A stretch of 64,000 nt of DNA from Candidatus Lustribacter sp. (lineage in GTDB: Bacteria; Vulcanimicrobiota; Vulcanimicrobiia; Vulcanimicrobiales; Vulcanimicrobiaceae). The stretch spans positions 4,928,001 to 4,992,000 of the forward strand of contig OZ255842.1 of assembly GCA_965277805.1 (NCBI GenBank). The letters are read 5' to 3'. Each line of letters starts with the position of its first letter. Within the stretch, counting starts at the first letter, position 1. Under the pieces are notes generated by a model. That model worked only from the letters and a program-made list of their open reading frames with translations, searched no databases and had not been told where the DNA came from. Positions 37,960-57,732 of the stretch are shown here, in pieces. Made by a program: the position numbers and the translations under genes.

Positions 37960-38367
37960 ATGAGTGAGGGTACGGGTGAGACAGGCGGTACCGCGATCGT
38001 CCCCGGCTATGCCGGCCACGCCGATGCGCGGGCGCGCCGGCTGAGCGATCAGCAAGTCCGGGCCTGGGTGGGCGAGATGCTGGCCGATCTCCAGGAGCGC
38101 GTGCCGCCCGACGGGTACGGCGACCGGCTCGACGCGTTGCTGATGCAGTGCGAGTTCGGCGACCAGCACGTGATCAAGGCGGTCGAAGACGATCGGTTCG
38201 GGGAGCCGGAGCTGGTGGAATTGGTTGAGGCGTGCGACCGCAAACTCATTGCGGCGGCGAGTCCCGGCCCGAACATCGGCCCCGACGGGATCCCCGCCCT
38301 GCTCGATGCGCTGGAGACCGCCTTCAAGGAGCGGTCAGCGGCGATCGAAGCGCGGTTAAAACGGTAG
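37960..38367 (+). CDS. Hypothetical protein
   Basis: 135 aa acidic helical ORF filling the gap between neighbours. Confidence 0.6.
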   Translation: MSEGTGETGGTAIVPGYAGHADARARRLSDQQVRAWVGEMLADLQERVPPDGYGDRLDALLMQCEFGDQHVIKAVEDDRFGEPELVELVEACDRKLIAAASPGPNIGPDGIPALLDALETAFKERSAAIEARLKR

Positions 38368-40824
38368 CTTGATCGCCCCGCGGACTTTGTTGATCACGGT
38401 GTTCTCCACGCTCTGAACGTTGGTCGGAACGCCGAGCTCGGAAAACTTGTCGATCGCGGCCTGCGTGAGTTTGTTGACTTGCGCGTTGATGATGCCGTTG
38501 ACCAAGTTCGCGACCAGCGATTGGCCGGGGAGCACCTTCACCGTTTGGCCCGCGAGGTTACCCGCGGTGTACGTGACCTGGACGCCGTCGGATTGGCTCG
38601 AGTTGTAGACGTTGAGCGTGAGGTTGTTGTCCTCGACGTCGATGTCGCCTTCGGTTCCGCGGACGGCAATCTGGGTCGTCGGCGTCACGAACGTGTAGTT
38701 CGCCTTGCCGCCTTGCGGGTGCTCGACTTGAAACCGCGTCTTCCCCTGATAGACGACGAACTTCGCGCTCGCGATATCGGTTTGGTTGAAGAACGCGAGC
38801 TGAACGCGCGTCATCTCGCCGAGCGTGACGATTGAGGAATCGGGCAGCGCGACTTGCGCCTGCGAAGCGGTTTGCGTAACGGCGGTGTCGCTGTCGGTGA
38901 GCAGCTGCTTCACTTTCGGCACCAGCGAATGCGGAGTGCCGTCGCGTTCGTAGGAGACGGCGCCCTTTACGTTGGTGAGCACCTTATCGTTGTCGCTGCG
39001 CGCGGCGAGCGGAAGGATCGCGAGCATCAGCGCCAGCGCGGTGGCCGCGGCCGTGCGGACCGTGGGCGAGTTGAGGCTGCGCGCGATCACCGCGCCGCAC
39101 ACCAGCGCGAGGACCGCGAAGCCCGTCCCCGGCAACGGTTCGGCCAGCACGAAGTCGCCGATCGCAAACAGCGTGCCGAAAACGAGGCCGAGTCCGGCCA
39201 GCCAATCGATCAGCGCGAGCCCGAGTGATTCGCCGGGCGGCGCGGGTGGAGCGAGACGGGCTATTCGTTTCCAGCCGAAATCGTCAGGTCGCACGCGTTC
39301 AAAAAAACGGAGCAAGGTGGCCTCGGTTTCAGGCTGGGTCGCGTATGTGACGGCGATCCAACCAACGGTGGTTATTGCGACGGTGATCAGCAATCGCTTC
39401 GCCGTGGCGTTCGGATCATCTCCCGAGACCGCGTTGAACGAGTAGATCGCGGTGCCCACGACCGCCGAGATCGCTAAGGCCGAAATCTCGCTCCAGGCAT
39501 TGATGCGCCACCAGTACCAGCGCAGGATCATCACGAGACCGACGCCGGCCGTAATCGTGAACATGTACTTCCAGGCATCGCCGACCGAGTGCATCAGCGG
39601 CGTGATCGCCGCGGCCAACACGAGGCACACGCCGGTCATCACCCGCGAGATCATCACGTAGTGACGTTCGTTCGCTTCTTTGCGGATGAAGCGCCGGTAG
39701 AGGTCGTTGGTGAGGTAGGAGGCGCCGAGGTTGAGCTGCGTGCCGATCGTCGACATGTATGCGGCCGCAAAGCCGGCCAGCATCAGTCCGCGCAGCGCCG
39801 GCGGCAAGTAGTCGACCAGCGTTTGCACGTAACCCAGCTCGGGATCGATCTTGCCGTCCGGGCCGGCGACGCCGTGCGGATAGAGGACCAGAGCGCATAG
39901 CGCGACGAGGATCCACGGCCACGGCCGGAGCGCGTAGTGCGCGACGTTGAAGAAGAGCGTTGCCAGCACGGCGTTCTTCTCGTCTTTGGATGCGAAGATG
40001 CGCTGTGCGATGTAGCTGCCGCCGCCGGGTTCGGAACCCGGATACGACGACGCCCACCATGCGACGCCGATGAACACGAGGAACGTGGTGAGAGGCATCC
40101 AGCCGGCGTCACCGGTGGGGAAAAACGATAACAGCGACCCGCCGCCCGAGGCTTGATGAGCGGCATCGAGCACGCTCAGCTTGGCCTTGAGCGCGACGAT
40201 CCCGCCGCAGGCGGCGACCGCGGCGACGGCGAGCACGATCGCCATCGACATCTTCACGATGAACTGCAGCATGTCGGTAACCAGCACCGACCACAGGCCG
40301 CCGATCGTTACGTATAACGCGGTCAGCACGAGGCAGATGTAGAGTGCCGGCAGCGTCGGCACGTGCAACGTCAGCGAGAGCACCTTCACCATCGCGACGT
40401 TGACCCAGCCCATGACGATTGTGTTGATCAGCACGCCCTGGTAGACGGCGCGCACGCCGCGCAGCCACGCCGCGGCCTTGCCGCCGTAGCGCAGTTCGAT
40501 GAACTCGACGTCGGTCAGCACGCCCGAACGGCGCCACAGCGCGGCAAAGAAGAACACCGTCAGCAGGCCGCTCGCCGCCATGTCCCACCACAGCCAGTTG
40601 CCCGCGATGCCGTTGGCGGCAACGAGACCGGTGACCGCCAGCGGCGTATCGACCGCGAACGTCGTTGCGACCATCGACGTGCCGGTGAGCCACCACGGCG
40701 CCTTGCCGCCAGAGACGAAGAACTCGCCGACGTTTTGCGTGCGCGCCGCGAAGTACACGCCGATCCCGAGGTTGACTGCGAAAAACGCAGCGATCACGAA
40801 GATGTCGAGACCGGTCAAGTGCAT
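38356..40824 (-). CDS. Sodium:solute symporter fused to a C-terminal FecR domain
   Basis: SSS motifs (SMVATTFAVDTPL, AAYMST, LRWYWWRINAW), then an extra TM and a FecR pattern (LPDSSIVTLGE, TPTTQIAVRGT) in one uninterrupted frame. Confidence 0.85.
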   Translation of the reverse strand: MHLTGLDIFVIAAFFAVNLGIGVYFAARTQNVGEFFVSGGKAPWWLTGTSMVATTFAVDTPLAVTGLVAANGIAGNWLWWDMAASGLLTVFFFAALWRRSGVLTDVEFIELRYGGKAAAWLRGVRAVYQGVLINTIVMGWVNVAMVKVLSLTLHVPTLPALYICLVLTALYVTIGGLWSVLVTDMLQFIVKMSMAIVLAVAAVAACGGIVALKAKLSVLDAAHQASGGGSLLSFFPTGDAGWMPLTTFLVFIGVAWWASSYPGSEPGGGSYIAQRIFASKDEKNAVLATLFFNVAHYALRPWPWILVALCALVLYPHGVAGPDGKIDPELGYVQTLVDYLPPALRGLMLAGFAAAYMSTIGTQLNLGASYLTNDLYRRFIRKEANERHYVMISRVMTGVCLVLAAAITPLMHSVGDAWKYMFTITAGVGLVMILRWYWWRINAWSEISALAISAVVGTAIYSFNAVSGDDPNATAKRLLITVAITTVGWIAVTYATQPETEATLLRFFERVRPDDFGWKRIARLAPPAPPGESLGLALIDWLAGLGLVFGTLFAIGDFVLAEPLPGTGFAVLALVCGAVIARSLNSPTVRTAAATALALMLAILPLAARSDNDKVLTNVKGAVSYERDGTPHSLVPKVKQLLTDSDTAVTQTASQAQVALPDSSIVTLGEMTRVQLAFFNQTDIASAKFVVYQGKTRFQVEHPQGGKANYTFVTPTTQIAVRGTEGDIDVEDNNLTLNVYNSSQSDGVQVTYTAGNLAGQTVKVLPGQSLVANLVNGIINAQVNKLTQAAIDKFSELGVPTNVQSVENTVINKVRGAIKLPF

Positions 40825-40884
40825 GGGTGGGCGTTGCGGATTGAATGCGGGCGTTCCCGCCGCGCGCCGAGGTTCGGCCCCGGC

Positions 40885-42882
40885 ATGACGGGAAAGCGCC
40901 ACAGCGTGCGCCGGTTTTTGCTTGCGGTCGTCCTCTTCGTCGCCGCCGCGCGTGCGAGCGATGCGGAACCGGCCTTGGTGCCGAAGCCGCTACAGCAGAC
41001 CGTGCTTGCCTGCCGCGCGCCGCTTGCGCTTTCCCGGCCGCTGACGTTTCCGGCCGGTGTCGATCCGGGCGGCTTCGCGATCGTCCGCGAACGCTGGACG
41101 GCGCTGGGAATGCCGGCGCCGGTCATCGCGAAGCGTGCGGCGCCGGCGGTCGTGACGGACGGTTCCCAACACGGCGCGACGATGTACGATCTCCAGGTGA
41201 CCGCCGCCGGCGTCCGCATCCGGTCCACGCCGGATGAGGGTGCGTTTGACGCGCTCGCGACGCTGGCGCAACTGCCGGAGCGTGACGCGCGCGGCTGGCA
41301 CATCGCCTGCACGCAGATCCATGACGCGCCCGCATTGCGCTGGCGCATCGTTTCCGACGACATCTCGCGCGGGCCGTTCCCGACGATGGCCTACTTCAAA
41401 ACGCGCATCCGCACGCTGGCCGGGCTGAAGATCAACGGCTATTCGCCGTACATGGAATCGGTGTTCGACGACCCGGCGCATCCGTACGTTGCGTTTCCCG
41501 AGCGCCTCACCGCGGCCGAACTGCACGAACTCGCGACCTACGCCCGGACGTTTCACGTCGCGCTGATCCCCGAGCAGCAGACGTTCGCACACATGCACGA
41601 GACGCTGAAGTGGGAGGCGCTCGCGCCGCTTGCGGAGCTCCCGCACGGTTATCTGATGGCGGAATCGGATCCGCGCACGTATACCTATCTCGCACCGCTG
41701 GTGCGCGCCGAACTCGCGGCGACCGGCCCCACGCCGTTCTTTCATATCGGCGCCGACGAACCGCTCGATCTCGGCCGCGGCCGCACGCCGCGCTCGCCGC
41801 AAGTGTTTGCCGCCCACGTCAATCGTGTCGCAGCGATGGTGACCGGAACGGTGCGACCGATGATCTGGGACGACGCGGTCCAAGCCGATCCCTCGATCCT
41901 CGGCCTGCTCGCGAAGCGGACCGTCATCGTCACCTTCCACTACGGCGCCGAACCCTCGTTTGCGAAATACATCGCGACGATCGACCGCGCCGGCTTCGAT
42001 CAGCTCGTCTCGCCCGGCGCCAATAATTGGAACGAGATCTATGCCGATCTCGACACGGCGTATGCCAACGAAGCGCAGTTTCTCGCCGATGCCAAAGCGG
42101 CGCACAGCCCGCACGTCCTCGGCATGTTCGAGACCGTCTGGCACGACGACGGCGAATCGCTTTATGAAGCGACGTGGGCGCCGGTGGCGTTCGCGGCGGC
42201 GTCGGCCTGGCAAGTTGCGCCGGTCGATCGCGCGACTTGGCACCGTACGTTCGCGCAAATGTTCTTCGGCGGCGATGCGGATGAATTCGCGGCCGATCTC
42301 GACAACCTCGCCGCGATTCGCGCTACGCTGGTGATGAAGCCGGAAACCGATCCGCCAGACTATTCGTTCTGGTCGGACCCGTTCGATCCGCGTATCCAGG
42401 CGCGTATGCAGACCCTCGACTTAGCCGGGATGCGCCTGCGCGCCGAACGTATTCTCACGCACCTGATGGGCGCCCATCCGCCGCTGAACGCGCACGCCGC
42501 GGCCGTGATGCGCCTGGCGGCATTGCGCTACGACACGCTTGCGCGCCGCTATCAGATCGGCAAAGAGGCCCGCGACTACTATGACGATGCGCGCGCGCAC
42601 GCGCCGGCGCACGACGACGGCATCGTGTACCGCAGCCTCAACGTCGCAAAATACCTGTGCTGGGAGCTGCGCGATGAGATGACGGCGCTCGCGCCGCTCT
42701 ACGCGTCCGCGTGGAACTACGAGAGCCGGCCGGCCGGACGCGATCGCGTCATGGTGCGTTACACGGCGGCGGCCGAGAAAGCCGTCGCACAGGCCGACCG
42801 TTTGTATGCCGCCGCGCGCGAGGATTATCTGCGCGGTGGAACGCTGCCCTCGTTCGACGACGCGCTCGGCCCCACGCGATGA
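40885..42882 (+). CDS. Secreted GH20 beta-N-acetylhexosaminidase
   Basis: Signal peptide, DAPALRWR, DDISRG, catalytic FHIGADE, MIWDD. Confidence 0.88.
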   Translation: MTGKRHSVRRFLLAVVLFVAAARASDAEPALVPKPLQQTVLACRAPLALSRPLTFPAGVDPGGFAIVRERWTALGMPAPVIAKRAAPAVVTDGSQHGATMYDLQVTAAGVRIRSTPDEGAFDALATLAQLPERDARGWHIACTQIHDAPALRWRIVSDDISRGPFPTMAYFKTRIRTLAGLKINGYSPYMESVFDDPAHPYVAFPERLTAAELHELATYARTFHVALIPEQQTFAHMHETLKWEALAPLAELPHGYLMAESDPRTYTYLAPLVRAELAATGPTPFFHIGADEPLDLGRGRTPRSPQVFAAHVNRVAAMVTGTVRPMIWDDAVQADPSILGLLAKRTVIVTFHYGAEPSFAKYIATIDRAGFDQLVSPGANNWNEIYADLDTAYANEAQFLADAKAAHSPHVLGMFETVWHDDGESLYEATWAPVAFAAASAWQVAPVDRATWHRTFAQMFFGGDADEFAADLDNLAAIRATLVMKPETDPPDYSFWSDPFDPRIQARMQTLDLAGMRLRAERILTHLMGAHPPLNAHAAAVMRLAALRYDTLARRYQIGKEARDYYDDARAHAPAHDDGIVYRSLNVAKYLCWELRDEMTALAPLYASAWNYESRPAGRDRVMVRYTAAAEKAVAQADRLYAAAREDYLRGGTLPSFDDALGPTR

Positions 42883-44837
42883 GCGGCATCGCGATCGTCC
42901 TCGTCTTCCTGCTGCTCGCGGGCTTGATGGTGGCGCGCAAGCTGCCGGCGCTCTTGGCGGTGCCGCTGATGGCGATCGCGATGGCAGCCCTCGCGGGTAA
43001 CGCGCCCACCGCGATCGCCGATGTTATCGTGCGCGGTGCCGTGCAGCTCGCGCCGGTCTATGCGACCGTGATCTTCGGCGCGCTGCTGAGCCGCGTCGTG
43101 CTCGCCACCGGCATCGCCGAAACGATCGTCACCTATGCGGCGGAATTCGGCGGCGACCAGCCGCTCGTGCTCGCGCTGCTCTTGTGCGCGGCGGTCGCGC
43201 TGTTATTCACCTCGGTGACGGGCCTCGGCGCGATCATCATGATCGGAACGATCGTGCTGCCCGTGATGATGACGGTCGGCGTGCCGCGCGTCACGGCGGC
43301 GACGCTGTTTCTGCTCGCATTCGGCCTCGGCTATATTCTCAACATCGCGCAGTGGACGTTCTACCGCCAGACGTTCGGTGTCGATCAGTCGCAGCTGCAG
43401 AACTACATCTTCGCGCTCTTCGCGATCGACGCGCTCGTGCTGATCCTCTTCGCGATCGTGCGCGGCCGCAGCACGCGCGACTACGCCACGTTCGCCGTCG
43501 CGGGAACGCCGCCGCGCAAACGGGTCGCGCCGTGGGCGCTGCTCACGCCGGTGCTGCCGCTCGTGCTCTACGCCGGTTTCCACGTCGATGCGCTGGTGGC
43601 GTTTCTGATCGCGGCCCTCTACGGCGTGCTCGCGACGCGGCCGCGCGAGATCGCGGCCACCTTGAGCGCGGCGTGGATTCGCGGTGTCGAAGACGTTGCG
43701 CCGGCGGTCATCTTGATGATGGGCATCGGCATGCTGCTGGTCGCCGTTAAGACGCCGGCCGTGCAGGATGCGGTGACGCCGGTCATCGCTGCGCTCGCGC
43801 CGCGCACGCCGCTCGCCTACATCATTGCGTTCGGTTTGCTCAGCCCGCTCGCGCTCTATCGTGGCCCGCTCAACCCGTTCGGCGTCGGCATCGGCGTCTA
43901 CACCGTGCTGGCCGCGCTGCACGTTTTGCCGCCGGTGGCGCTGGTGGCGGCGGTTATGGCGGTCGTGCAAGTGCAGAACGTCTGCGACCCGACGAACACG
44001 CAGAACGTCTGGGTGGCCAACTTCACCGGCGTTGCGGTCGAGCGCATCACGCGCCTCGTGCTGCCGTATCAAGTCAGCGTGGCGACGCTGGGCGTCGCGA
44101 GCGTCGTCGTCTTCGGCCGCGCACTCCTCGGCGTCGCGCCGTTTGCGACGGCGGCGGCGGCAGCGGCGGGCTTGCCGAGTATCGGTGCGCCGGCGGCGAA
44201 CGACGGCGTGATCGCCGTGGTCGCGGGGTCGCCGGCGGCAAGCGCGGCTGCGAGCGGAGTGACGGCGGCCATCGCACGCGGCTGGAAACCGCTGCGCGCG
44301 TTACCGGAGCCGGCCGTCGATACGCAGCACGATTGTGCGTCGCTCCCATACGCGAGCATCATGCGCGTGTCGGTGACCACCGGCGCCGCGACGCAAGACA
44401 TCGGGCTCGAACTGTTCGATTGCGCGGGCTGGAGTGTCGATCAATGGCACGCGCAAGGGAGCGATACGCGCGTTGCCGCGCTCGGCGATCTCGACCGCGT
44501 GCGCGTGTGGATGCACGAACATCCGCAACTGGCCGCTAACGTGCTCGGACGCGGCATCGCGTTCGACCCGGCGACCGGCCGTCCGACGTACTTCTTCACG
44601 CTTTACAAAACGAACGACGGCATCATGCGCGCGCTCGTGCGCACCGGCGGTCCCGCGTGGACGGCCGGCTTACGCACCGGCGACGTCGTCGACAAAGTCG
44701 ACGGAAAATTCTGGTGGGAGTACGGCACGTATCAAACGCAGTTGCGCGCGTACGACGGCCGCCCGCACACGTTCGAAGTAACGCGCGGCGCTCAGCACGG
44801 CATCCGCGTCGCGCTAGGAGAACCGTTTACGGGTTAG
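42879..44837 (+). CDS. GntP/citrate-transporter-like permease with C-terminal soluble and PDZ-like domain
   Basis: About 12 TM (LYRGPLNPFG, CDPTNTQNVW), then GGPAWTAGLRTGDVVDKVDG. ATGA-coupled to GH20. Confidence 0.78.
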   Translation: MSGIAIVLVFLLLAGLMVARKLPALLAVPLMAIAMAALAGNAPTAIADVIVRGAVQLAPVYATVIFGALLSRVVLATGIAETIVTYAAEFGGDQPLVLALLLCAAVALLFTSVTGLGAIIMIGTIVLPVMMTVGVPRVTAATLFLLAFGLGYILNIAQWTFYRQTFGVDQSQLQNYIFALFAIDALVLILFAIVRGRSTRDYATFAVAGTPPRKRVAPWALLTPVLPLVLYAGFHVDALVAFLIAALYGVLATRPREIAATLSAAWIRGVEDVAPAVILMMGIGMLLVAVKTPAVQDAVTPVIAALAPRTPLAYIIAFGLLSPLALYRGPLNPFGVGIGVYTVLAALHVLPPVALVAAVMAVVQVQNVCDPTNTQNVWVANFTGVAVERITRLVLPYQVSVATLGVASVVVFGRALLGVAPFATAAAAAAGLPSIGAPAANDGVIAVVAGSPAASAAASGVTAAIARGWKPLRALPEPAVDTQHDCASLPYASIMRVSVTTGAATQDIGLELFDCAGWSVDQWHAQGSDTRVAALGDLDRVRVWMHEHPQLAANVLGRGIAFDPATGRPTYFFTLYKTNDGIMRALVRTGGPAWTAGLRTGDVVDKVDGKFWWEYGTYQTQLRAYDGRPHTFEVTRGAQHGIRVALGEPFTG

Positions 44838-45772
44838 GACGCGATGTTCAGGAAGACGGTTGGAATTTCGGGCCGCTGGAACGACGGCGGCGGGAAGGTA
44901 CCGACGCCGGCAAACGTTTGTCCCTGAATCTCGCCGGTTAGCTTCTGTTGCGCCGGTTCGAGTTGCGCTACCGCAGCTTCGTTGTCGGCCGCGCGCGCGG
45001 CGGCGATGCGGAAATCCACCGCTTGCAGTTGCTGTTGTGCGGCGGCCTGCGCTGCGGCTTGGGCGTCGGCCGCCTCGGCGGCGGCTTGCGACGCTTGTGC
45101 TTCCTGCTTCTCGGCTTGAATGACGATCGGGTTCGTCGCCGGCGCGCCGAGCAATCCGAGTGCCGGATTATTTTCCACGGCGGTGCCGCCCGGAATCGGC
45201 GGCGGACCGCCGGCTCCCAATAAGCCGGTGGGCGGCGGCGGTTGCTGGTTGCTGCCGCTGGTATTTTGGCTCGTGTCGCTCTGCGTCGCGTCGGTCTTCG
45301 CGAGGGTGTCGCTCTCGTTCGCGACCTTCTGATCGGTGGCGTCGGATTTCGATAACGTCGGCGGCGGCTGCGAGGTCGTAGTGGTGGGTGCAGCATCGCC
45401 CGAATTCGTGCCAGCGGCGGGTGGTTGTGTTTGCGCCGCGCCGGTGGTTGCCGCTGCAGCGGCGCCTTTGACCGCGGCGGCTTCATCGCCCGCGCCTGGA
45501 TCCGCGGGCGGTGCCGGCGTCGGCGGCGGTGCTGCCACGATCGAGAGCCGGCCGTTCACCACGCCGGGCGTGCCGTAGGTTGAACCGTTGGTTCCGAAGC
45601 CTGCATACGACGACGGGAACGCGGTGAAGTTTTTCGCCTCGGGCGGTGGGCTTGGGGGCGGCGGCGGGGGCGCAGGCGCGGGCGTGGTTGCGCCGGGCAC
45701 GGCAGCGCCGGCGCCAGTGAGCTGCCGCGTGGTGGTCGCCGGCGAAGCGCCGAGCGGAGCGAGCCCAGCCAT
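44834..45772 (-). CDS. Low-complexity Pro/Ala/Thr/Gln-rich protein
   Basis: 312 aa ORF; TATGAT 6 nt upstream of the ATG. Confidence 0.6.
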   Translation of the reverse strand: MAGLAPLGASPATTTRQLTGAGAAVPGATTPAPAPPPPPPSPPPEAKNFTAFPSSYAGFGTNGSTYGTPGVVNGRLSIVAAPPPTPAPPADPGAGDEAAAVKGAAAAATTGAAQTQPPAAGTNSGDAAPTTTTSQPPPTLSKSDATDQKVANESDTLAKTDATQSDTSQNTSGSNQQPPPPTGLLGAGGPPPIPGGTAVENNPALGLLGAPATNPIVIQAEKQEAQASQAAAEAADAQAAAQAAAQQQLQAVDFRIAAARAADNEAAVAQLEPAQQKLTGEIQGQTFAGVGTFPPPSFQRPEIPTVFLNIAS

Positions 45773-48077: not shown

Positions 48078-48257
48078 ATGGAATTCATCGGCTCCGGTTT
48101 CGTGCTCACGATCGGCAGCATGCGGCTGCGCGTGCGCATCGCGCTCGAAGAGACGCCGCACGAATGCGCTGCGCACGGGAAGGCACCGGCGTTCGCCCGC
48201 GAAGAGCGGGATGATGACCGCCCCGCCCGACGCTCGTATCGCATTCATCCGCGCTAA
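48078..48257 (+). CDS. Possible small hypothetical protein
   Basis: GGAGG upstream; MEFIGSGFVLTIG...; overlaps the next gene. Confidence 0.4.
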   Translation: MEFIGSGFVLTIGSMRLRVRIALEETPHECAAHGKAPAFAREERDDDRPARRSYRIHPR

Positions 48258-50327: not shown

Positions 50328-50406
50328 AACCGCCTCAGCCGACGGCCGTAAGAAAAGTAAACGCCTCGCGCCTTCGCGCTCGGCTTCTCGAGCCGTGTTC
50401 TTGCGC

Positions 50407-50540: not shown

Positions 50541-50545
50541 GGGGG

Positions 50546-52615
50546 ATGATGGATCCGGCCGCTCGGGTTCGAATTGGGATCGATGTCGGCGGTACGTTCA
50601 CCGACGTCGTGGCCGTCGATGCGGATACGCGCGCGATGCTGGCGTCGGTCAAGGTGCCGACGACGCACGATCATGCCGACGGCGTCGCGGCCGGTATCGT
50701 GGCCGGCCTCGAACGGATGCTGCGCGAGCACGACATCGATCCGGGCGCGGTGACGTTCATCGCCCACTCGACGACGCAGGCCACGAACGCGTTGCTCGAA
50801 GGCGACGTCGCGCGGGTCGGCGTCGTCCGCTTTGGTTCGGCGTTCGCGCGCGCATCGATGCGTTTCAAGCCGATTCCGCTGGCCGCCGGCATCGCGCTCG
50901 CGCCGGCCTTTCTCGATGCGACCGCGAGCGCGGACGATGCGTGGTTCGAGCGCGCGCGTTCGAGCGGTATCGATGCGTTCGTGGCGAGCGAGGCCTTTGC
51001 GGTCGACCGTCCTGAACGCGAGGAGGCCTTCGTCGGCGCGGCGCGCGCCCGCGGTTTTGCCGCCACCAGCGGCAGCGAGGTCTCGACGATGTACGGCCTG
51101 CGCGCGCGCACGCGCACCGCGGCACTCAACGCCGCGATCTTGCCGCGCATGCTGCGCACCGCGCGGATGACGCGCCGCGCGGTTGCCGACGCGCACATCG
51201 GCGCGCCGCTGATGATCATGCGCTCCGACGGCGGCGTGATGGACGTCGGTGAGGTCGAACGCCGCCCGATTCTCACGATGCTTTCGGGACCCGCCGCGGG
51301 AATTGCCGGCGCACTCTTCCACGAAAACGTCACCGACGGCATCTTCATCGAAGTCGGCGGCACGAGCGCCGACTGCTCGGTGATCCGCCGCGGCCGGCCG
51401 CAACTGCGTCCCGCGCGCATCGGCGGCCACCGCACGCTGTTGCGCACGCTCGACGTGCGCACGCTCGGCGTCGCGGGCGGCTCGCTCGCGCACGTCTCCG
51501 CGGGTGCGGTCAGGGCGGTCGGCCCGCGCTCGGCGCACATCGCCGGCTACCGCTACGCGTCGTTTTGCGACGTGGAAACGATCGCGGCCGCGCGGCCGGC
51601 GGTCGAAGACGGTATCGCGGCGCTCGCGGATGACGCCGGCCGCATCGCGATCACGCCGACGTGTGCGGCCAACGTGCTCGGCTTCGTGCCGGCGACCGCA
51701 TTCGCGCACGGCAATGCGGCCGCCGCGCGCTTAGCGTGCGAGCGCGTGGGCGAAGCGCTGGGTCTCACTGCAGACGCGCTGGCGCGCGCGATCCTCGAAC
51801 GGTCGACCGCGACGCTGAAGGGCGCGATCGACGAGTTGATCGCCGATTACGAACTCGATCGCGCGACGGTCGTGCTGGTCGGCGGCGGTGGTGGTGCGGC
51901 CGCGCTGATTCCGTTTGCCGCGCAAGCGCTCGGCTTCGAGCACCGCATCGCGCGCGATGCCGAGGTGATCTCGCCGCTCGGTGTGGCGCTCGCGCTCGTG
52001 CGCGACGTCGTCGAGCGCACGATCGTCGATCCGGCGCCGGCCGATCTCGTGCGCATCCGCCGCGAAGCCGTCGACGCCGCGATTCGCGCCGGGGCCGCGC
52101 CCGGCGGCATCGAAGTGGTCATCGATATCGACCGCTCGCGCAACCGCGTGCGTGCTTCGGCCTCCGGCGCAACGGCGCTCGTCGGCGGTCCCAACGCTGC
52201 GGCGAGCGCGAGTGCCGAAGAGCGCATCGCCGCCGCCGTGCGCGCGTTGCGCGTCGAGCCGGCGGCCGCCCACGTGATCGCGCAGACGCCCGGCTTCATC
52301 GCCGTTGAAGCAAAGAACAGCGTTGCGATCGTCGACGAGCGCGCGGTCGTGCGGCTGATCGTACCGCGCGCGATCGTCGTGCCGGCGACGGCCGCCGGAA
52401 CGGCCGCCGCGATCGCGTCGACGATCGAAGAGCACACATCCTACGGCGACGTCGGCCGCGCGCTGCCCGATCTGTGGCTCTTGGCCGGAGCGCGCATCGT
52501 CGAACTCGCCGGTCTCACCGATGCCGAAAGCGCCGTTGCGCTTGCCGCCGACGAAATCACCGGCCTGCCCGATACGACGGCGATCGCCATCGTCGCCGCG
52601 GCGAAGCGCGCCTAA
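50546..52615 (+). CDS. Hydantoinase/oxoprolinase A-like protein
   Basis: GIDVGGTFTD, HSTTQATNALLEG, SGPAAG, EVGGTS. Confidence 0.87.
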   Translation: MMDPAARVRIGIDVGGTFTDVVAVDADTRAMLASVKVPTTHDHADGVAAGIVAGLERMLREHDIDPGAVTFIAHSTTQATNALLEGDVARVGVVRFGSAFARASMRFKPIPLAAGIALAPAFLDATASADDAWFERARSSGIDAFVASEAFAVDRPEREEAFVGAARARGFAATSGSEVSTMYGLRARTRTAALNAAILPRMLRTARMTRRAVADAHIGAPLMIMRSDGGVMDVGEVERRPILTMLSGPAAGIAGALFHENVTDGIFIEVGGTSADCSVIRRGRPQLRPARIGGHRTLLRTLDVRTLGVAGGSLAHVSAGAVRAVGPRSAHIAGYRYASFCDVETIAAARPAVEDGIAALADDAGRIAITPTCAANVLGFVPATAFAHGNAAAARLACERVGEALGLTADALARAILERSTATLKGAIDELIADYELDRATVVLVGGGGGAAALIPFAAQALGFEHRIARDAEVISPLGVALALVRDVVERTIVDPAPADLVRIRREAVDAAIRAGAAPGGIEVVIDIDRSRNRVRASASGATALVGGPNAAASASAEERIAAAVRALRVEPAAAHVIAQTPGFIAVEAKNSVAIVDERAVVRLIVPRAIVVPATAAGTAAAIASTIEEHTSYGDVGRALPDLWLLAGARIVELAGLTDAESAVALAADEITGLPDTTAIAIVAAAKRA

Positions 52616-53703
52616 GCGCCGAGTTCGGCTGCGGCGATCGTGTAGCGAAACGCGGCGGCATCGGTGCCGTCGCGATGCGCGGTGCCGCTTTCGGCTTGCG
52701 GGTAGAGCAGAAACGGCAACGCGCCGATCGTTGCGCCCGGCAGCTGCACGTTCCGGCCGTCGTTGTAGGCGATCCAGTTCGTCTCCCACGCGCCGAAGAG
52801 CGTGCCGCGCGCGTCGATCACCACCTGATCGTCCAGGGTGAGCCGGCCCGGCGGTTCGGCGGCGATGACGTGACGCACGTCGGCCGGATCGGCCGGCACC
52901 CAGCCGAAGCCGCCGAGAAACACTTCGGCGCGCACGTGCTGCGCGTGCGTCACGTCGGGCGCGTTCGCACCGAGGCTCGTGTAGCCGAACTGCGAGGGCG
53001 CAACGCGGATGCCGTACAGCATGCGCGCAGGCAAGCCCGCCGCGCGCGCGAGCGCGACGAAGAGCCCGTTGATGTCGGCGCTCTTTCCGCCGAGCTTGCC
53101 GCTGGTGAGCATGGCCGCAGCGTCACCCGTTCCGCAGCCGGCGACCTTCGGATCTTCGAACGTGTTGGTGACGACCCACTCGTAGATCGCGCGCGCTTTA
53201 TCGACGTCGTTCGTCAGGCCGGCGGTGATTTTGCCGGCCGTACCGGCGACGATGCCGGCGGCCGCCGCGCTATAGCGCAGGCGGTCAGCCGCAGGCAGAT
53301 CGGGCGGCGTTGCGGGCTTCGCGAAGTTGGTCGTGCGATCGCGCGTCGCAACGCGGCTCACGATCGCGATGGCCGGCGCCGCCGCGGCGCTCGTCCATTG
53401 CGCGTAGACCATCGACGTGCCCGACGCCGGATCGCGCACGAGCTTCACGCTCGTGGCGTTGGTTTTCCAGCGGCTCGCGGCCGGTTTGATCCAACTCGCC
53501 GCGCTCAGCGCCGGCACGGGGACCCACGCTGCCGCCGGACCGGTAACGCCGGCGAGTTCGATCGTGGTGGTCAGGTCGAAGGTGCGCCAGCGATCGGGCT
53601 GCGGCGAGAACGGATCGAGCATCGGCAGCGCCCCGGCCACGCGCGGTAGCGCGAACGCAGCGGTAGCCGCGAACGCCGAGCCCCAAAAATGCCGTCGCCG
53701 CAC
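52612..53703 (-). CDS. Tat-exported transglutaminase-like protein
   Basis: RRRHF twin-Arg signal; GGKSADINGLF, QHVRAEV, WVPADPAD. Confidence 0.85.
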   Translation of the reverse strand: MRRRHFWGSAFAATAAFALPRVAGALPMLDPFSPQPDRWRTFDLTTTIELAGVTGPAAAWVPVPALSAASWIKPAASRWKTNATSVKLVRDPASGTSMVYAQWTSAAAAPAIAIVSRVATRDRTTNFAKPATPPDLPAADRLRYSAAAAGIVAGTAGKITAGLTNDVDKARAIYEWVVTNTFEDPKVAGCGTGDAAAMLTSGKLGGKSADINGLFVALARAAGLPARMLYGIRVAPSQFGYTSLGANAPDVTHAQHVRAEVFLGGFGWVPADPADVRHVIAAEPPGRLTLDDQVVIDARGTLFGAWETNWIAYNDGRNVQLPGATIGALPFLLYPQAESGTAHRDGTDAAAFRYTIAAAELGA

Positions 53704-53715
53704 GTCTCGAACCGC

Positions 53716-54417
53716 TTACTGCTTAGCTGCGATGTACAACCCGTGCGGGAACAAATCGGAGCGTTCGCTGCGCGCTTTGAGACCGGCAGCATCGAAAGCC
53801 AAACGGTACTGTGCGTCGGTGAAGAGCTGCTGCACGTGCGTTTCGCTGAAGCCCGACATGCCGGTCGTTTCGCCGACCAGGTACTCATAGCGCGTCACCG
53901 AGGTCGTGCCGTAGCGTTCGCTCGCGCCGATGCGCGCGATCTTCAACTGCGGCTGGTCGACGAACGTTCCTTCGATCGTGTTGTCGCGCCATTCGTCGGG
54001 GCCGATCCACGGCTCGATGATCACGAGGCCGCCGGTGGTCACGGCGTTCGCGAAGCGCACGATCGTGCTGCGCAGCTCCGATTCGTCGGCCAGATAGGCG
54101 ATCGAGCCGAAGAGGCACATGGCGACGTCGTACGGCCGTTCGACCGTGAGATCTTGCATCCGGCCCACGCGAAACGGCACGCCGGGCAGCCGTTCCTTGG
54201 CGATCTCGATCATCGTAGCGTCGGCGTCCTCGCCGGCGACTTCGAACTGCTTGTGCATGAACCGCAAGTGCGCGCCGGTGCCGCAGGCCACGTCGAGCAC
54301 GCGATGCGCGCCGGGATTGGCCACGCCGATCGCGGCGCGCAGCCAGGCCGCCTCGGCGGCGTAATCCTTACCCCGCGCGTTGATCGCCTCGTAAAACGCT
54401 TGCGACTTATTGAACAC
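53716..54417 (-). CDS. SAM methyltransferase resembling TylM1/DesVI amino-sugar N-methyltransferases
   Basis: GKDYAAEA, LDVACGTG, CLFGSIAY, IEPW. Confidence 0.8.
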   Translation of the reverse strand: MFNKSQAFYEAINARGKDYAAEAAWLRAAIGVANPGAHRVLDVACGTGAHLRFMHKQFEVAGEDADATMIEIAKERLPGVPFRVGRMQDLTVERPYDVAMCLFGSIAYLADESELRSTIVRFANAVTTGGLVIIEPWIGPDEWRDNTIEGTFVDQPQLKIARIGASERYGTTSVTRYEYLVGETTGMSGFSETHVQQLFTDAQYRLAFDAAGLKARSERSDLFPHGLYIAAKQ

Positions 54418-54466
54418 CCCGCGTCCCTTCGGCGGTGGAGCGAGCCCGGCCCGCGAAGGCGAGCGC

Positions 54467-55828
54467 GTGGAAGAGTACGACGTTCTGGTCGTGGGTGGCG
54501 GCAACGCCGGCTGCGCTGCGGCGTTGGCGGCGGCCCGTACCGGCGCGCGCACGCTCTTGGTCGAACGCTACGGCTTCCTGGGCGGGACGGCCACCGCTGC
54601 AATGGTCGGGCCGTGGATGACCTTTCATTCCGGGAGCGACCGGATCGTGGGCGGGATCGCGCAAGAGATCGTGGAGCGGCTGATCGCGCTCGGCGGCTCG
54701 CCCGGACACATTCCCGATTCGTCGGACTACGTGCCGACGATCACGCCGTTCGATCCCGAGATCCACAAGGCGCTGCTGTTCGACCTGATGCACGAATCCG
54801 GCGTGCAGCTGCTGTTGCACGCGCTGGTGGTCGATGCCGTGCGCGACGAGCGCGGTACGGTGCGAGGGGCGGCGTTCGCAACCGTCGGCGGGATGCGCAC
54901 GTATTTCGCCAAGCGCACAATCGACGCGACCGCCGATGCGTTCGTGGCCGCCGCCGCGGGTTGCGCGATGCAGCAAGGCGACGAGCGCGGGCGCGTGCAG
55001 CCGTCGAGCCTGATGTTCCGGCTCAGCCACGTCGACATGGACGCCGTCGCGGAATACGTGCGCGACCATCCCGATCAGATGCGCTCTTCGCTCGCGCCTG
55101 CGCAGCGCAACGCAGCGGCGCTGACGGCCGTCGCGGGATTGTACGAGCTGTGGCAAGGCGCGCAGGCCGACGGCATCCGCGTACCGCGCGAACTCGTGTC
55201 GTTCTTCATATCACCATATCCGGACGAGGTGACGGTGAACATGACGCGCGTCACCGACATCGATCCGCTCGATCCCGACGACCTCACGCGCGCCGAGATC
55301 GAAGCGCGCGGGCAAGCGATGCGGCTGGTCACGTTCTTTCGCGAACGCGTGCCGGGGTTTGCGCACGCGCGCATCGCTGCGACCGCGACGCAGATCGGCG
55401 TGCGTGAGTCGCGCCGCATCGAAGGCGTCTACACGCTCACGCGCGAGGATATTCTCGAGCGTCACACGTTCGACGATGCGGTGGCGCGCAGCGCGTATCC
55501 GATCGACATCCACAACCCTTCGGGCAGCGGAACGACGACGCACCGGCTGCCGCCCGGAACGTCGTACGAGATTCCCTACCGCTGCCTCGTGCCGCGCACC
55601 GTCGACGATCTGCTCGTTGCAGGGCGCTGCATTTCCACCACGCACGAAGCGCTCGCGTCGACGCGGCTGACGCCGACCGTGATGACGCTCGGCCAAGCCG
55701 CGGGAACGGCGGCTGCGCTCTCGTTGCAAACGAACGTGCTGCCGCGCGCGCTCGACGTGCAGGCGTTGCGCGAAAAGCTCGTTGCAGACGGCGTCGATCT
55801 GCGCCGGCCGGCGGTGGCCCGTGCCTGA
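54467..55828 (+). CDS. FAD-dependent oxidoreductase (FAD_oxidored family)
   Basis: VVGGGNAG, IDATAD, GVRESRRI, YPIDIH, AGRCIS, GQAAG. Confidence 0.9.
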   Translation: MEEYDVLVVGGGNAGCAAALAAARTGARTLLVERYGFLGGTATAAMVGPWMTFHSGSDRIVGGIAQEIVERLIALGGSPGHIPDSSDYVPTITPFDPEIHKALLFDLMHESGVQLLLHALVVDAVRDERGTVRGAAFATVGGMRTYFAKRTIDATADAFVAAAAGCAMQQGDERGRVQPSSLMFRLSHVDMDAVAEYVRDHPDQMRSSLAPAQRNAAALTAVAGLYELWQGAQADGIRVPRELVSFFISPYPDEVTVNMTRVTDIDPLDPDDLTRAEIEARGQAMRLVTFFRERVPGFAHARIAATATQIGVRESRRIEGVYTLTREDILERHTFDDAVARSAYPIDIHNPSGSGTTTHRLPPGTSYEIPYRCLVPRTVDDLLVAGRCISTTHEALASTRLTPTVMTLGQAAGTAAALSLQTNVLPRALDVQALREKLVADGVDLRRPAVARA

Positions 55829-56105
55829 TCCGCGCACGGTCGCGCGCGAGCGCGGGATCGCGATCGAACTCGCCGATCTCGGTTCGTGGGGCGATGCGAC
55901 GCTCGTTTCGGAATACGATCCGGCGGGACCGGTGATCCGCATCAACACGCGCGCGATCCCGCCCGGCTCGTCGTGCGACGTGCGCGAGCACATCGACCGC
56001 GCGGTGACGCACGAACTCTACCATCATGCCGAAGCGACGGGCGAGGTGGACAAAATCGCGAGCCATAGAGCGCGCGAACGTGCGGCCGGCGAACACACGC
56101 TCTGA
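55821..56105 (+). CDS. Small HExxH (ImmA/IrrE-like) protein
   Basis: IRIN...THELYHH...RERAA; overlaps both neighbours. Confidence 0.65.
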   Translation: MPDPRTVARERGIAIELADLGSWGDATLVSEYDPAGPVIRINTRAIPPGSSCDVREHIDRAVTHELYHHAEATGEVDKIASHRARERAAGEHTL

Positions 56106-57034
56106 TGCCAGCGCTCTATGCCGGAATCGACGGCGGCCAATCTTCGACGATCGCCGTGGTGCTCGATGCGCGCGGAACGGTGCTGGGCCGCGGCACGGCC
56201 GGTCCGAGCGATCACGTCGACGAGCCGAAGAATACGCAGCGCGCAGCGCAGGCGTGCGAATCGGCGCTCGCGGCCGCGCTGGCCGCGGCGAACTTGCCGC
56301 ACGATACGGAGCCGGCGGCGGTCGTCATCGGGCTCTCGGGCTACGACGGTGACTGGTACGGGCGCGAACCCGTCTTCGGCCAGGCGATCGTGCGCTACAA
56401 GCACGACTCCGTCATCGCGCTCGCCGGTGCGATCCGCGAGCGGCCGGCGGCGGTCGTCATTGCCGGCACCGGCTCCGTCGCCTACGGCGAATCGGCGCAA
56501 CGCGATCCGGTCCGGGCCGGCGGTTTCGGCTACCTGTTCGGCGACGAGGGTAGCAGCTTCGCGATCGCGCGCACGGCCCTGGCGTCGGCGATGCGCTTGA
56601 GCGACCGCGGCGTGCGGACCGACTTGGGCCTCGCCGCCCTCGCGTTCTTCGACTGTCCGGATTTGCGCGCGTTCGCCCGGGCCGTGGCGCTGCGCGAAAT
56701 CGGCCGCCCCCAAGTGGCCACTTTTGCCCGGGTCGTCTTCGATGCCGCGCGGCTCGGCGACCCGGAAGCGGGCAAGATCGTCGAGGACGCGGCCGCGGCG
56801 CTGGCCGGCCTCGCTCAGCTGGTCGTCGAGCAGCTCGGGCACGTCGACATGCCGGCCGTGCCGGTCGCGTTCGTCGGCGGCGCGATGGACAATCCCGAGC
56901 TGCGTCTCGCGGCCGCGCGGCGGCTGGAAGCCGCGACTTCCTTAGGCCGCGTGGTCGCGCCGGCGTTCGAGCCGGCGGTCGGCGCGGCGTTCCTGGCTTT
57001 CGATGCCGCCGGGGTGGCGCGGCCGGCGCCATGA
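56105..57034 (+). CDS. BadF/BadG/BcrA/BcrD-type sugar (GlcNAc-like) kinase
   Basis: GIDGGQSST, IAGTGS, GGFGYLFGDEGS. Confidence 0.88.
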   Translation: MPALYAGIDGGQSSTIAVVLDARGTVLGRGTAGPSDHVDEPKNTQRAAQACESALAAALAAANLPHDTEPAAVVIGLSGYDGDWYGREPVFGQAIVRYKHDSVIALAGAIRERPAAVVIAGTGSVAYGESAQRDPVRAGGFGYLFGDEGSSFAIARTALASAMRLSDRGVRTDLGLAALAFFDCPDLRAFARAVALREIGRPQVATFARVVFDAARLGDPEAGKIVEDAAAALAGLAQLVVEQLGHVDMPAVPVAFVGGAMDNPELRLAAARRLEAATSLGRVVAPAFEPAVGAAFLAFDAAGVARPAP

Positions 57035-57732
57035 ACCTCGAACGGCTGCGCGGGCTGATCGTCTCGATTCAGCCCGAGCCGGACTCCGTCCTCAACCGCC
57101 CCGAAATCGTGGCGCTGCTGGCGCGGGCCGTGGTGGCCAATGGCGCGGCGGGCGTCCGCATCGAGGGCGCGGAGCGGATCGCAGCGGTCCGGGCCGCGGT
57201 CGACGTTCCGATCGTCGGCCTCATTAAACGAAGCTTTCCGGGCTTCGCCCCCTACATCACCCCGACCGCGGAAGAGATCGACGCGATCGTTGCGGCCGGC
57301 GCCGAGATCGTTGCCTTCGATGCCACCCCGCGAGCACGTCCGCACGGCGATGACGTGCCCGCCATGGCCGGCCGGATTCACGCTCGCGGCGCCGTCGCGA
57401 TGGCTGACTGCGCCACCAGTGCGGAGGTGCGCGCGGCCGCTGCGGCCGGCGCAGAGATCGTTGCCACGACGCTCAGCGGCTACACCGACGATACCCGCGG
57501 CCGGCACCTGCCCGCGCTCGACGTGTTGCGCGACGCCGTAGCGACCGGGGCGTTCGCGATCCTCGAGGGCGGCGTGGCGATGCCCGATGAGGTGGCCGCC
57601 GCGATCGCCGCCGGCGCCGGGGCCGTTGTGGTCGGGACCGCGCTGACGAACCTGGATGCGCGCGTGCGTACGTTCGCTACGGCTGCTCGACAGAAGTCCG
57701 CGCCGGAAAATCGTTTGCCCCGTACTGTGTGA
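57031..57732 (+). CDS. nanE: N-acetylmannosamine-6-phosphate 2-epimerase
   Basis: LIVSIQ, PIVGLIK, YITPT, TTLSGYT, EG, VVVGTALT. Confidence 0.9.
   Translation: MNLERLRGLIVSIQPEPDSVLNRPEIVALLARAVVANGAAGVRIEGAERIAAVRAAVDVPIVGLIKRSFPGFAPYITPTAEEIDAIVAAGAEIVAFDATPRARPHGDDVPAMAGRIHARGAVAMADCATSAEVRAAAAAGAEIVATTLSGYTDDTRGRHLPALDVLRDAVATGAFAILEGGVAMPDEVAAAIAAGAGAVVVGTALTNLDARVRTFATAARQKSAPENRLPRTV

Follow-up and report, generated by a model that had tools for sequence, protein, structure and literature searches.

The genome of Candidatus Lustribacter sp. (GenBank assembly GCA_965277805.1, contig OZ255842.1), a member of the Eremiobacterota (Vulcanimicrobiota), contains a series of scattered genes with an amino-sugar character. 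They encode a sodium:solute symporter (SSS) fused to a FecR-like domain, a GH20-like glycosidase, a permease fused to a PDZ domain, a HyuA-like (hydantoinase A/oxoprolinase) ATPase, a PF12831 flavoprotein, a small HExxH protein, a BadF-type sugar kinase and the epimerase NanE. On balance, with confidence a little better than even, the region is read as one uptake-and-catabolism (or salvage) cluster that is conserved across one order of the phylum and is split in this large genome by lineage-specific insertions. The window, meaning the whole stretch of 64,000 nucleotides (nt) that was analysed, covers positions 4928001-4992000 of a 5.53-Mb single-contig genome, and its gene map is based on a listing of open reading frames (ORFs) and on Pfam and NCBIfam scans. 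Proteins almost identical to those encoded here are named after Candidatus Lustribacter, Velthaea and Eremiobacteraeota, and the protein atlas assigns the phylum Vulcanimicrobiota. Five sequencing entries contain all or part of this DNA, none of them recorded as RNA. The original prediction, made from the letters of this DNA, had named these genes as a candidate system for sensing and catabolism of N-acetylhexosamine (HexNAc) conjugates. The ORF listing and the family scans find every gene it named in its reported place. Comparison of neighbourhoods across genomes, the check it had proposed for a linkage that it left unproven, turns this loose list of neighbours into a defined and testable four-gene core (permease, HyuA-like ATPase, mini-zincin and PF12831 flavoprotein) conserved between two distant phyla.

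Linkage and synteny within the order

Linkage was assessed in 20-kb loci around the flavoprotein ortholog of 20 relatives, in each of which the window proteins were located. The BadF kinase gene is adjacent in 20 of the 20 loci, NanE is found in 19, the HExxH gene is detected in 16, and the HyuA-like gene lies within the locus in 18. The sister family f2 (loci L027-L030) has a compact arrangement. At L028, nine genes on the same strand either overlap or are separated by no more than 7 bp, in the order (ORF coordinates of that locus) aminotransferase (2039-3238), GH20-like (3231-5267), permease (5264-6532), PDZ protein (6514-7290), HyuA-like (7297-9390), flavoprotein (9387-10748), HExxH (10748-11074), BadF (11071-11982) and NanE (11975-12661). 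The smallest genome (G019, 1.9 Mb, locus L024) has a divergent SSS gene and then, on one strand, GH20-like, permease-PDZ, HyuA-like, flavoprotein, HExxH, BadF, NanE, COX2 and COX1. In the small genomes the genes that interrupt the cluster are gone. Across 14 relatives the SSS ortholog is found on the contig of the flavoprotein, 10-18 kb away.

The entire block from SSS to NanE is absent from genome G110 (96% complete), where COX3-COX1-COX2 and a homoserine dehydrogenase gene are followed by a homolog of the cyclase that flanks SSS in the window and marks the boundary of the deletion. Genome G012 is without the flavoprotein, GH20-like, NanE and SSS genes, and is not counted as an independent loss because COX2 is absent too, possibly through an assembly gap. 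Among 300 sampled genomes of the phylum, eight of them unpublished, a flavoprotein ortholog (E <1e-176) occurs in 200 of 206 members of family f1 and in all three of f2. Among the 28 genomes of a panel, only those within the order have GH20-like and NanE genes (0/11 genomes of the sister family f3, 0/7 genomes of other classes). GH20-like, flavoprotein and NanE have one shared distribution, the order itself, and none of the three was found in those f3 and other-class genomes. The cluster is nearly universal within one order of a phylum that is common in soil and peat and seldom cultured, and probably serves that group as a major nutrient or recycling route. The compact run in f2, the absence of the whole block from G110 and the shared distribution support the view, taken from gene order and occurrence, that the scattered window genes form one functionally linked cluster.

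Flavoprotein homologs from other classes (36-46% identity) were considered and treated as paralogs, as other cluster genes lie within 20 kb in none of ten such loci. Two homologs from two other classes of the phylum (L040 in G054 and L037 in G075; 39-42% identity) adjoin a gene for a YfhO-family membrane protein, and the one at L040 is also beside NamZ, an S41-PDZ protease and a UDP-GlcNAc 2-epimerase (GlcNAc, N-acetylglucosamine). Other relatives of the flavoprotein have sugar ATP-binding cassette (ABC) transporters, a ROK protein or DUF4127 as neighbours. Many of the flavoprotein matches in relatives are listed with one TGA in the matched stretch, and these stops appear to fall in the extension upstream of the true start and not in the gene.

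A core shared with Bacillota

The search beyond the phylum is based on twelve aligned representatives 40-48% identical to the flavoprotein, with one genome per species, and covers 80 loci. Two are from Eremiobacterota, one of which (L110) has the whole cluster. Four of the other 78, all from Clostridia, combine the flavoprotein with homologs of the permease, the HyuA-like ATPase and the HExxH protein. The carriers are a Lachnospiraceae metagenome-assembled genome (MAG), Clostridium intestinale, a Bacillota MAG and Pseudoflavonifractor. Identity to the window proteins is 32-40% for the permease domain and 37-41% for the full-length HyuA-like protein. Directly 3′ of the HyuA-like gene, all four loci have an ORF of 217-230 amino acids (aa) that matches no Pfam family and shares with the window HExxH protein the motif HE[LFI][YF]H..E and a conserved downstream Glu-x-x-Ala, as in (S/R)E.AA.AFA. 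An RpiR regulator is encoded in three of the four.

Orthologs of the Clostridium HyuA-like protein were found in 18 of 401 sampled Bacillota genomes. After exclusion of a match at a contig end (G713) and of the locus that G311 had already contributed (L072), 18 loci from 16 genomes remain, two genomes giving two each. Seventeen of the 18 have an adjacent permease gene, 12 have a detected HExxH gene and 10 have the flavoprotein. L139 does not count as independent, being almost the same as L075, and several Bacillota contigs end inside the module. Bacillota homologs of the permease part are 27-48% identical to that of the window. The cultured carriers linked to the core are Clostridium intestinale and Clostridium tertium, which makes experiments feasible in Clostridium. 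Paenibacillus and Neobacillus are more distant, their loci holding a flavoprotein relative only; matches to the HExxH family also include proteins of Paenibacillus. In Neobacillus (L052) the flavoprotein relative is followed by a DUF4127 gene. Clostridium, Paenibacillus and Sporomusa, the named Bacillota carriers, are spore-forming groups.

Genus g14 of the Eremiobacterota separates the same genes. Its main locus (L019) has the fused SSS::FecR, GH20-like, flavoprotein, BadF and NanE genes and is without the permease, HyuA-like and HExxH genes. These three form an overlapping operon at another site in the genome, with an HExxH homolog of 118 aa. This standalone operon and the recurrence in Bacillota identify the permease, HyuA-like and HExxH genes as a separable unit. 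By these comparisons of gene content, the trio is the conserved core, with the flavoprotein as a frequent companion, and GH20-like, PDZ, BadF, NanE and SSS form an Eremiobacterota-specific shell around it. The original prediction had treated the HyuA-like and HExxH genes as side items, a ranking that is reversed by their conservation with the permease and their recurrence in Bacillota without GH20, BadF or NanE.

A number of observations weigh against a single catabolic cluster. The Bacillota modules have no GH20-like, BadF or NanE gene nearby, and NanE occurs anywhere in only one of four such genomes, so the substrate of the core need not be a HexNAc conjugate. NanE itself is hard to fit with the muropeptide and oxidised-chitin substrates considered below. 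The loss of the block in G110 is a single event on physically linked genes. Eight family f1 genomes have no SSS ortholog, only a 42-44% paralog elsewhere. G084 retains the cluster though its flavoprotein gene is truncated, and in G020 the trio lies at a locus separate from that of GH20-like, flavoprotein, BadF and NanE. In addition, synteny is just as strong for the adjoining cytochrome oxidase genes, COX2 and COX1, and descent therefore explains part of the conserved order within this bacterial order.

Carried further, the last argument would make the region a mosaic held together by descent, an unrearranged stretch of chromosome with several unrelated functions. COX2 and COX1 share this synteny in 19 of the 20 loci, the insertions vary (the ABC pair, the M20 gene, the methyltransferases and the transglutaminase-like gene), and SSS, the flavoprotein and the trio have each been lost or moved in some genomes. 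This explanation is nevertheless considered distinctly unlikely, given the f2 run with its overlapping starts and stops, the absence of the whole block from G110 with both flanks retained, and the recurrence of four of the genes together in Bacillota at 33-45% identity. A linked cluster with lineage-specific insertions is the reading retained here. In G084 the truncated gene is represented by a 168-aa C-terminal remnant (L046:8720-9226) next to inserted DUF4870 and amino-acid permease genes, with HExxH, BadF, NanE, HyuA-like, permease-PDZ and GH20-like kept.

Proteins of the core and of the downstream operon

The HyuA-like ATPase (50546-52615, plus strand; PF01968 193 bits, PF05378 85 bits) is full length and contains both a Hydant_A_N and a Hydantoinase_A domain. 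It matches the solved N-methylhydantoinase (2.4e-30) and 5-oxoprolinase (3.9e-15). None of the 15 HyuB (PF02538) matches of the genome falls inside the window, which bears out its earlier description as a solo hydantoinase-A-like ATPase, and no HyuB was seen among the neighbour ORFs scanned around the Eremiobacterota and Bacillota homologs. Fifteen HyuB genes in a 5.5-Mb genome are an unusually large hydantoinase/oxoprolinase complement. To our knowledge, every characterised HyuA-type ATPase works with a HyuB partner. Like the HyuA subunits of hydantoinase, oxoprolinase, caprolactamase and acetone carboxylase, the window protein is a full-length two-domain HyuA; unlike them, it has no adjacent HyuB in the loci examined, and its kept neighbours are an HExxH protein of 94-230 aa and a permease. 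A conserved partner other than HyuB would be new enzymology for this family.

The HExxH mini-zincin (94 aa; 55821-56105, plus strand, within an ORF spanning 55782-56105) carries the HExxH motif and a downstream Glu and has no Pfam family. The two His, the Glu between them and the downstream Glu and Ala are invariant across 15 homologs from two phyla. No Pfam match is obtained at E 0.05, PF06114 (M78) included, and a profile search of solved chains gave nothing credible. A profile search for relatives returned 223 proteins; among the 120 listed, none has a Pfam domain and all are named 'hypothetical'. The AlphaFold2 (AF2) model (pLDDT 85.8) has PprI/IrrE, the minigluzincins abylysin and selecase, and SprT as best Foldseek matches (E 0.01-0.05, the lowest about 0.013; template modelling (TM) score ~0.5). 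It thus resembles ImmA/IrrE (M78) proteins and minigluzincins in the small alpha/beta zincin fold of the predicted model and in the HExxH motif with a downstream Glu. It differs from them in the absence of a Pfam M78 match, in its marginal structural scores and in having no XRE repressor partner, its gene being always translationally coupled to metabolic genes. From the model, the protein may be called zincin-like, and these matches do not establish membership of M78 or the minigluzincins.

It is tentatively proposed, as an idea more likely wrong than right, that the HyuA-like and HExxH proteins form a HyuB-independent, two-component ATP-dependent amidohydrolase that would open or cleave a stable amide or lactam of an acidic amino-sugar derivative, for example the muramic delta-lactam of the spore cortex or a peptidoglycan fragment. 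It would be fed by the dedicated permease and often assisted by the flavoprotein, and Eremiobacterota would have wired it to the GH20-like glycosidase, the PDZ receptor, a HexNAc kinase and NanE. If true, this would amount to a complete, previously undescribed amino-sugar pathway. The predicted complex of the HExxH protein with the solo HyuA-like ATPase scores 0.00, which weighs neither for nor against binding.

The flavoprotein, a FAD-dependent oxidoreductase (54467-55828, plus strand; PF12831 426 bits), is called as 453 aa in an ORF that opens at 54410. Among 1.84 billion representatives searched, one relative is 78% identical and the rest are at most 48%, which makes the protein an order-specific subfamily. 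The protein atlas places it in generic clusters of PF12831, a large family, only, and a full-text literature search by accession found no characterised PF12831 member. Its AF2 model (pLDDT 95.5) matches generic two-domain FAD folds among solved structures in Foldseek (TM at most about 0.5) and, as a predicted structure, offers no functional clue.

The BadF/NAGK-type kinase gene (56105-57034, plus strand; PF01869 98 bits) overlaps the HExxH gene by 1 bp. The closest solved structures of the kinase are the Sulfolobus tokodaii hexokinase (2.5e-20) and MurK (1.7e-19), and it scores 87 bits against NagK_SO3507, far under the cut-off of 370. The NanE gene (57031-57732, plus strand), for an N-acetylmannosamine-6-phosphate 2-epimerase family protein, overlaps the kinase gene by 4 bp and is the sole copy in the genome (PF04131 168.8 bits; PRK01130 234.6 bits, cut-off 189). 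These successive overlaps, 1 bp and 4 bp at the last two junctions, confirm the overlapping arrangement of FAD oxidoreductase, HExxH, BadF kinase and nanE that had been described from the sequence as an operon. Directly downstream, from 57812 on the plus strand, lie COX2 and then COX1.

The upstream end

The GH20-like glycosidase gene (40885-42882, plus strand) and the SSS::FecR gene (38356-40824, minus strand) are divergent, with 60 bp (40825-40884, read from the sequence) between their starts, the distance of about 60 bp that had been noted; in G019 the same divergent pair is separated by 75 bp. The glycosidase has an N-terminal GH20b domain (PF02838, 35 bits, cut-off 26.1). Its GH20 catalytic domain (PF00728) falls narrowly under the gathering score (22.2 versus 22.3 bits) and covers profile positions 75-227 of 348, a borderline match. 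Against solved GH20 enzymes the best E-value is 1.3e-8, with HIGADE aligned to HIGGDE of 6yhh. The catalytic Asp-Glu pair of GH20 enzymes is part of an H-x-G-x-D-E motif, and residues H287, G289, D291 and E292 are invariant in seven of seven orthologs. The GH20b domain, the solved GH20 matches and the invariant motif together back the GH20 assignment. The protein is inferred to be a divergent, secreted or periplasmic glycosidase with an N-terminal signal peptide, as its sequence reads.

The permease::PDZ gene (42879-44837, plus strand; PDZ_6 29-33 bits) overlaps the stop of the GH20-like gene by 4 bp (ATGA). A single GH20-permease::PDZ gene had been suggested earlier; the parts are all present, as two genes. 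The product is an ion-transporter-superfamily permease of ~420 aa joined to a membrane-anchored domain of ~240 aa with a C-terminal PDZ. Because family f2 encodes the permease and a 258-aa membrane-anchored PDZ protein as separate genes, the window protein is a fusion. GntP and CitMHS matches of the permease are weak, and two Cys residues of permease::PDZ are invariant in ten of ten sequences.

SSS::FecR is an SGLT-like symporter (PF00474 117 bits) that has two additional membrane segments at its C-terminus, together with a FecR-like domain (PF04773 42 bits). An ATG start at 40824 is preferred over the GTG of the ORF at 40902, as the alignment with orthologs begins at the first residue of the 822-aa form. 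The closest solved chains are vSGLT (2.7e-24) and SGLT1/2, with SiaT further away (5e-11). By these matches the symporter is of the sugar type, and it is an accessory member of the cluster. Fusion to FecR is confined to genus g1 (G001, G004, G006, G007) and to G020, in a tally that takes in the unpublished G015 and G036, the latter being the only f3 genome with an SSS ortholog. No signalling partner of FecR, whether an extracytoplasmic function (ECF) sigma factor or a TonB-dependent transducer, was found among the scanned neighbours (the cyclase, an exchanger and a small ORF). The sensing role once suggested for the system is weakly supported, given that most SSS orthologs are without FecR and that no sigma factor or receptor is encoded by these neighbours.

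Substrate and proposed pathway

The amino-sugar flavour of the cluster is supported by the domain assignments: the GH20-like glycosidase, the hexokinase/MurK-like kinase, NanE above its cut-off, the TylM1-type methyltransferase and, next to the Bacillota homologs, regulators of the GntR/UTRA, ROK and RpiR types, which commonly govern amino-sugar genes. The complete set of regulators near the Bacillota modules comprises GntR/UTRA (3), ROK (3-4), RpiR (3), IclR and GntR/FCD. GH18 enzymes flank two Bacillota loci, and at L143 and L144 the module lies among genes for a PfkB kinase, a 2-keto-3-deoxy-6-phosphogluconate (KDPG) aldolase, a pyridoxal phosphate (PLP) enzyme, amidohydrolases and IclR. 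Peptide-handling parts recur in both phyla: a PDZ domain, an M20 dipeptidase and the HExxH zincin in Eremiobacterota, and M81 (MlrC-like) peptidases (two loci), an S11 D-Ala-D-Ala carboxypeptidase and an S33/S9 hydrolase in Bacillota. From the peptidases, the PDZ domain, the regulators and the sugar-type SSS, the substrate would be an amino sugar that is capped with HexNAc and is acidic or carries a peptide, with a peptidoglycan-derived muropeptide, a muramic-lactam fragment or an oxidised chito-oligosaccharide as candidates. The modified amino-sugar pathway of the original prediction is partly supported, in its linkage and its amino-sugar flavour.

A working model takes the gene identities, linkage, distribution and cross-phylum core as observed and adds inferred cellular locations, step order and substrate class. 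The secreted GH20-like glycosidase would take a terminal beta-HexNAc off a two-part extracellular substrate, and the SGLT-like symporter would import the neutral sugar. The remaining acidic, probably peptide-bearing part would be bound by the extracytoplasmic PDZ domain and imported by the ion-transporter-type permease. In the cytoplasm, the HyuA-like ATPase, the HExxH mini-zincin and the PF12831 flavoprotein would process this acidic part, with help from dipeptidases in many relatives. The BadF kinase and NanE would turn the released N-acetylhexosamine into GlcNAc-6-phosphate for a NagA-like deacetylase encoded elsewhere. NanE is found only in the cluster and only where the cluster occurs, which argues for a pathway with an N-acetylhexosamine 6-phosphate at its end that would require epimerisation at C2.

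The window has no nanA, nagA or nagB, as had been noted, and the best matches are all elsewhere. The best NagA-like protein, at genome position 2924631, scores 219 bits (cut-off 225.65) and is encoded 2 Mb off, beside a CitMHS transporter and a phosphohexomutase. The sole PF01182 match of the genome (2536714) adjoins OpcA and transaldolase genes, neighbours that identify it as 6-phosphogluconolactonase and not NagB. The best genome-wide match for NanA (TIGR00683) reaches 129.7 bits (cut-off 382) and lies far from the window. The absence of NagA and NagB from the cluster also counts against ordinary chitobiose or GlcNAc utilisation, in which GH20 would free GlcNAc, a NagK-type kinase would phosphorylate it and the rest would be bystanders. 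The HxGxDE motif kept in the GH20-like gene, the match of the BadF kinase to NagK_SO3507 and the GH18 chitinases beside two Bacillota modules are consistent with it. However, GlcNAc use does not need NanE, the best-conserved members (permease, HyuA-like and HExxH) fit no known GlcNAc pathway and the GH20 catalytic domain is borderline (22.2 vs 22.3 bits), all of which makes this explanation quite unlikely next to the two-part acidic substrate of the working model.

Another reading is salvage of peptidoglycan fragments. The GH20-like enzyme would cut GlcNAc off muropeptides, the PDZ domain and permease would import the N-acetylmuramic acid (MurNAc)-peptide or the muramic delta-lactam, and the HyuA-like protein and zincin would open or cleave an amide with ATP. 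The flavoprotein would remove the lactyl ether, and the kinase (with NanE) would finish the route. Lactam opening with ATP is the chemistry of characterised HyuA/B enzymes such as oxoprolinase and caprolactamase. The kinase is near the solved MurK (1.7e-19), and PDZ, M20 and HExxH parts here are matched by M81 and S11 peptidases in Bacillota, whose carriers belong to spore-forming groups. Flavoprotein relatives occur beside NamZ, an S41-PDZ peptidase, YfhO and DUF4127, the last of which is also present in an AnmK-MurQ locus. That locus (L050, genome positions 2596000-2612000) encodes a GH3 enzyme, a beta-lactamase-family protein, AnmK, a BadF kinase, a MurQ-like SIS protein (264 bits, cut-off 302), a 300-aa protein of unknown family and DUF4127, and by its gene content looks like a canonical peptidoglycan sugar recycling operon. 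Its BadF kinase and that of the window have local similarity only. With canonical GH3-AnmK-BadF-MurQ-like recycling already encoded elsewhere, no amidase or etherase family in the cluster, no obvious role for NanE and a speculative chemistry for the flavoprotein, salvage of this kind is considered rather unlikely. The cluster resembles peptidoglycan recycling (NagZ, AnmK, MurK/NagK, MurQ) in its MurK-near BadF kinase and in a glycosidase that would free GlcNAc, and is unlike it in that AnmK, MurQ and GH3 are absent here and encoded separately at L050. A role of the cluster as a MurQ replacement is weakened by the presence of the MurQ-like gene and AnmK together at that locus.

The closest described analogue of the divergent SSS/GH20-like pair, as compared by family, would be the ong cluster of Pseudoalteromonas prydzensis, where an atypical, separately clading periplasmic GH20 (OngA) and an SSS (OngIT) split and import GlcNAc-GlcNAc1A (GlcNAc1A, N-acetylglucosaminic acid) (PMC9537276). 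Both systems would combine a signal-peptide GH20 of an atypical clade with a sugar-type SSS for a disaccharide of HexNAc and an acidic amino sugar; here the two gene types are divergent and 60 bp apart. Some Bacillota homolog loci add KdgK-like, KDPG aldolase, PLP enzyme and amidohydrolase genes to the likeness. An oxidised-chitin route would accordingly have the GH20-like enzyme split GlcNAc-GlcNAc1A, the SSS and a GntP-like permease import the products, and the HyuA-like protein, zincin and flavoprotein replace OngB and OngC. The pairing of GH20 and SSS, the weak GntP/CitMHS likeness of the permease and the setting of the module at L143 and L144 suggest as much. The Eremiobacterota cluster, in contrast, has no homologs of OngB (D-aminoacylase), OngC (PLP deaminase), OngD or KdgK and no RidA; it has the HyuA-like protein, mini-zincin, PF12831 protein, BadF kinase and NanE instead. 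No amidohydrolase, PLP deaminase or PfkB kinase was found by the Pfam and NCBIfam scans in the called ORFs from 38356 to 57732. Since NanE and a HexNAc kinase are also ill-suited to GlcNAc1A catabolism, this route is judged very unlikely.

In combining a sugar transporter of the SSS family with a sugar kinase and NanE, the region also recalls the nan cluster (NanT/SiaT, NanA, NanK, NanE). The differences are that no NanA above cut-off exists genome-wide, the kinase is of the BadF type (PF01869) and not a ROK protein, there is no sialidase, and the SSS is nearer SGLT than SiaT. Finally, the genes could work in the opposite direction as a biosynthetic cluster, with the kinase and NanE making N-acetylmannosamine 6-phosphate (ManNAc-6-P) and the methyltransferases modifying an amino sugar for a cell-surface glycoconjugate. 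The NanE reaction is reversible, and the TylM1-type N-methyltransferase gene is adjacent in 10 of the 20 loci. In the Pfam and NCBIfam scans, however, nucleotide-sugar enzymes and glycosyltransferases are absent from the cluster, and the secreted glycosidase, the importers and the catabolic-type regulators of the Bacillota homologs indicate uptake. Biosynthesis is therefore highly improbable, and uptake followed by catabolism or salvage is the direction adopted here.

Within the literature searched, the cluster is not described in print; it is a new arrangement of known families with one unannotated family. No account was found of a hydantoinase with a FAD-dependent oxidoreductase and RpiR, none of the papers listed for muramic and lactam recycling mentions a hydantoinase, and the titles and abstract openings of work on Eremiobacterota and N-acetylglucosamine show no connection. 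In its abstract and outline, PMC13691567 names no relevant enzyme.

Accessory and neighbouring genes

Several genes that the original prediction overlooked (a transglutaminase-like gene, a GntR/YtrA-like regulator, M20 and a Methyltransf_11 gene, MT11) lie between the conserved ones. The M20 dipeptidase (48211-49599, plus strand; NCBIfam PRK08201 536 bits, cut-off 441) is followed by MT11, a class I S-adenosylmethionine (SAM) methyltransferase (49596-50327, plus strand; PF08241 59 bits) whose gene overlaps the M20 stop. M20 occurs in 11 of the 20 related loci, and in L018, L020 and L026 it lies between permease-PDZ and HyuA-like on the same strand. L018 and L020 have both M20 and MT11 inside the operon run from permease-PDZ to HyuA-like, and L026 has M20 alone. 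MT11 is immediately 5′ of the HyuA-like gene in L014, L018, L021 and L033. From their positions, M20 and MT11 are accessory members, M20 a frequent one, and not simple intruders.

The TylM1/DesVI/CalS10-type gene (53716-54417, minus strand) is predicted to encode an amino-sugar N-methyltransferase and is a frequent accessory of the cluster. Its similarity to the solved CalS10, DesVI and TylM1 chains (E 8e-36 to 2e-34) is full length (residues 8-233), in agreement with the TylM1-like assignment made earlier. Its gene is on the minus strand, opposite the flavoprotein operon, and is divergent from the flavoprotein gene, which it adjoins in 10 of the 20 loci and also at L090.

The transglutaminase-like gene (52612-53703, minus strand; PF01841 74 bits) has a twin-arginine-type N-terminus (MRRRHFWGSAFAATAAFALP). 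It is present in only four of the 20 loci (L014, L021, L022 and L032), all from close relatives, and is a genus-level insertion. The ORF at 44834-45772 (minus strand) has no homolog in any of the 20 related loci and no Pfam or NCBIfam family, and it is excluded from the cluster. It encodes a 312-aa Pro/Ala/Gln-rich, low-complexity product, overlaps the permease::PDZ stop and may be spurious or lineage-specific. A scan of the region for promoters and terminators gave weak consensus matches only, which were left unused.

Between this ORF and M20 lies a self-contained module inserted in the cluster (46066-48073, plus strand; Pfam and NCBIfam scans), which is headed by a small GntR/YtrA-like regulator (46066-46470) and continues with an ABC pair made up of an ATPase and an ABC-2-type permease. 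Several relatives at genus level have this pair too. The upstream flank of the cluster encodes a Na+/H+ exchanger (35528-36844, plus strand) and an adenylate/guanylate cyclase-domain protein (36808-37920, minus strand).

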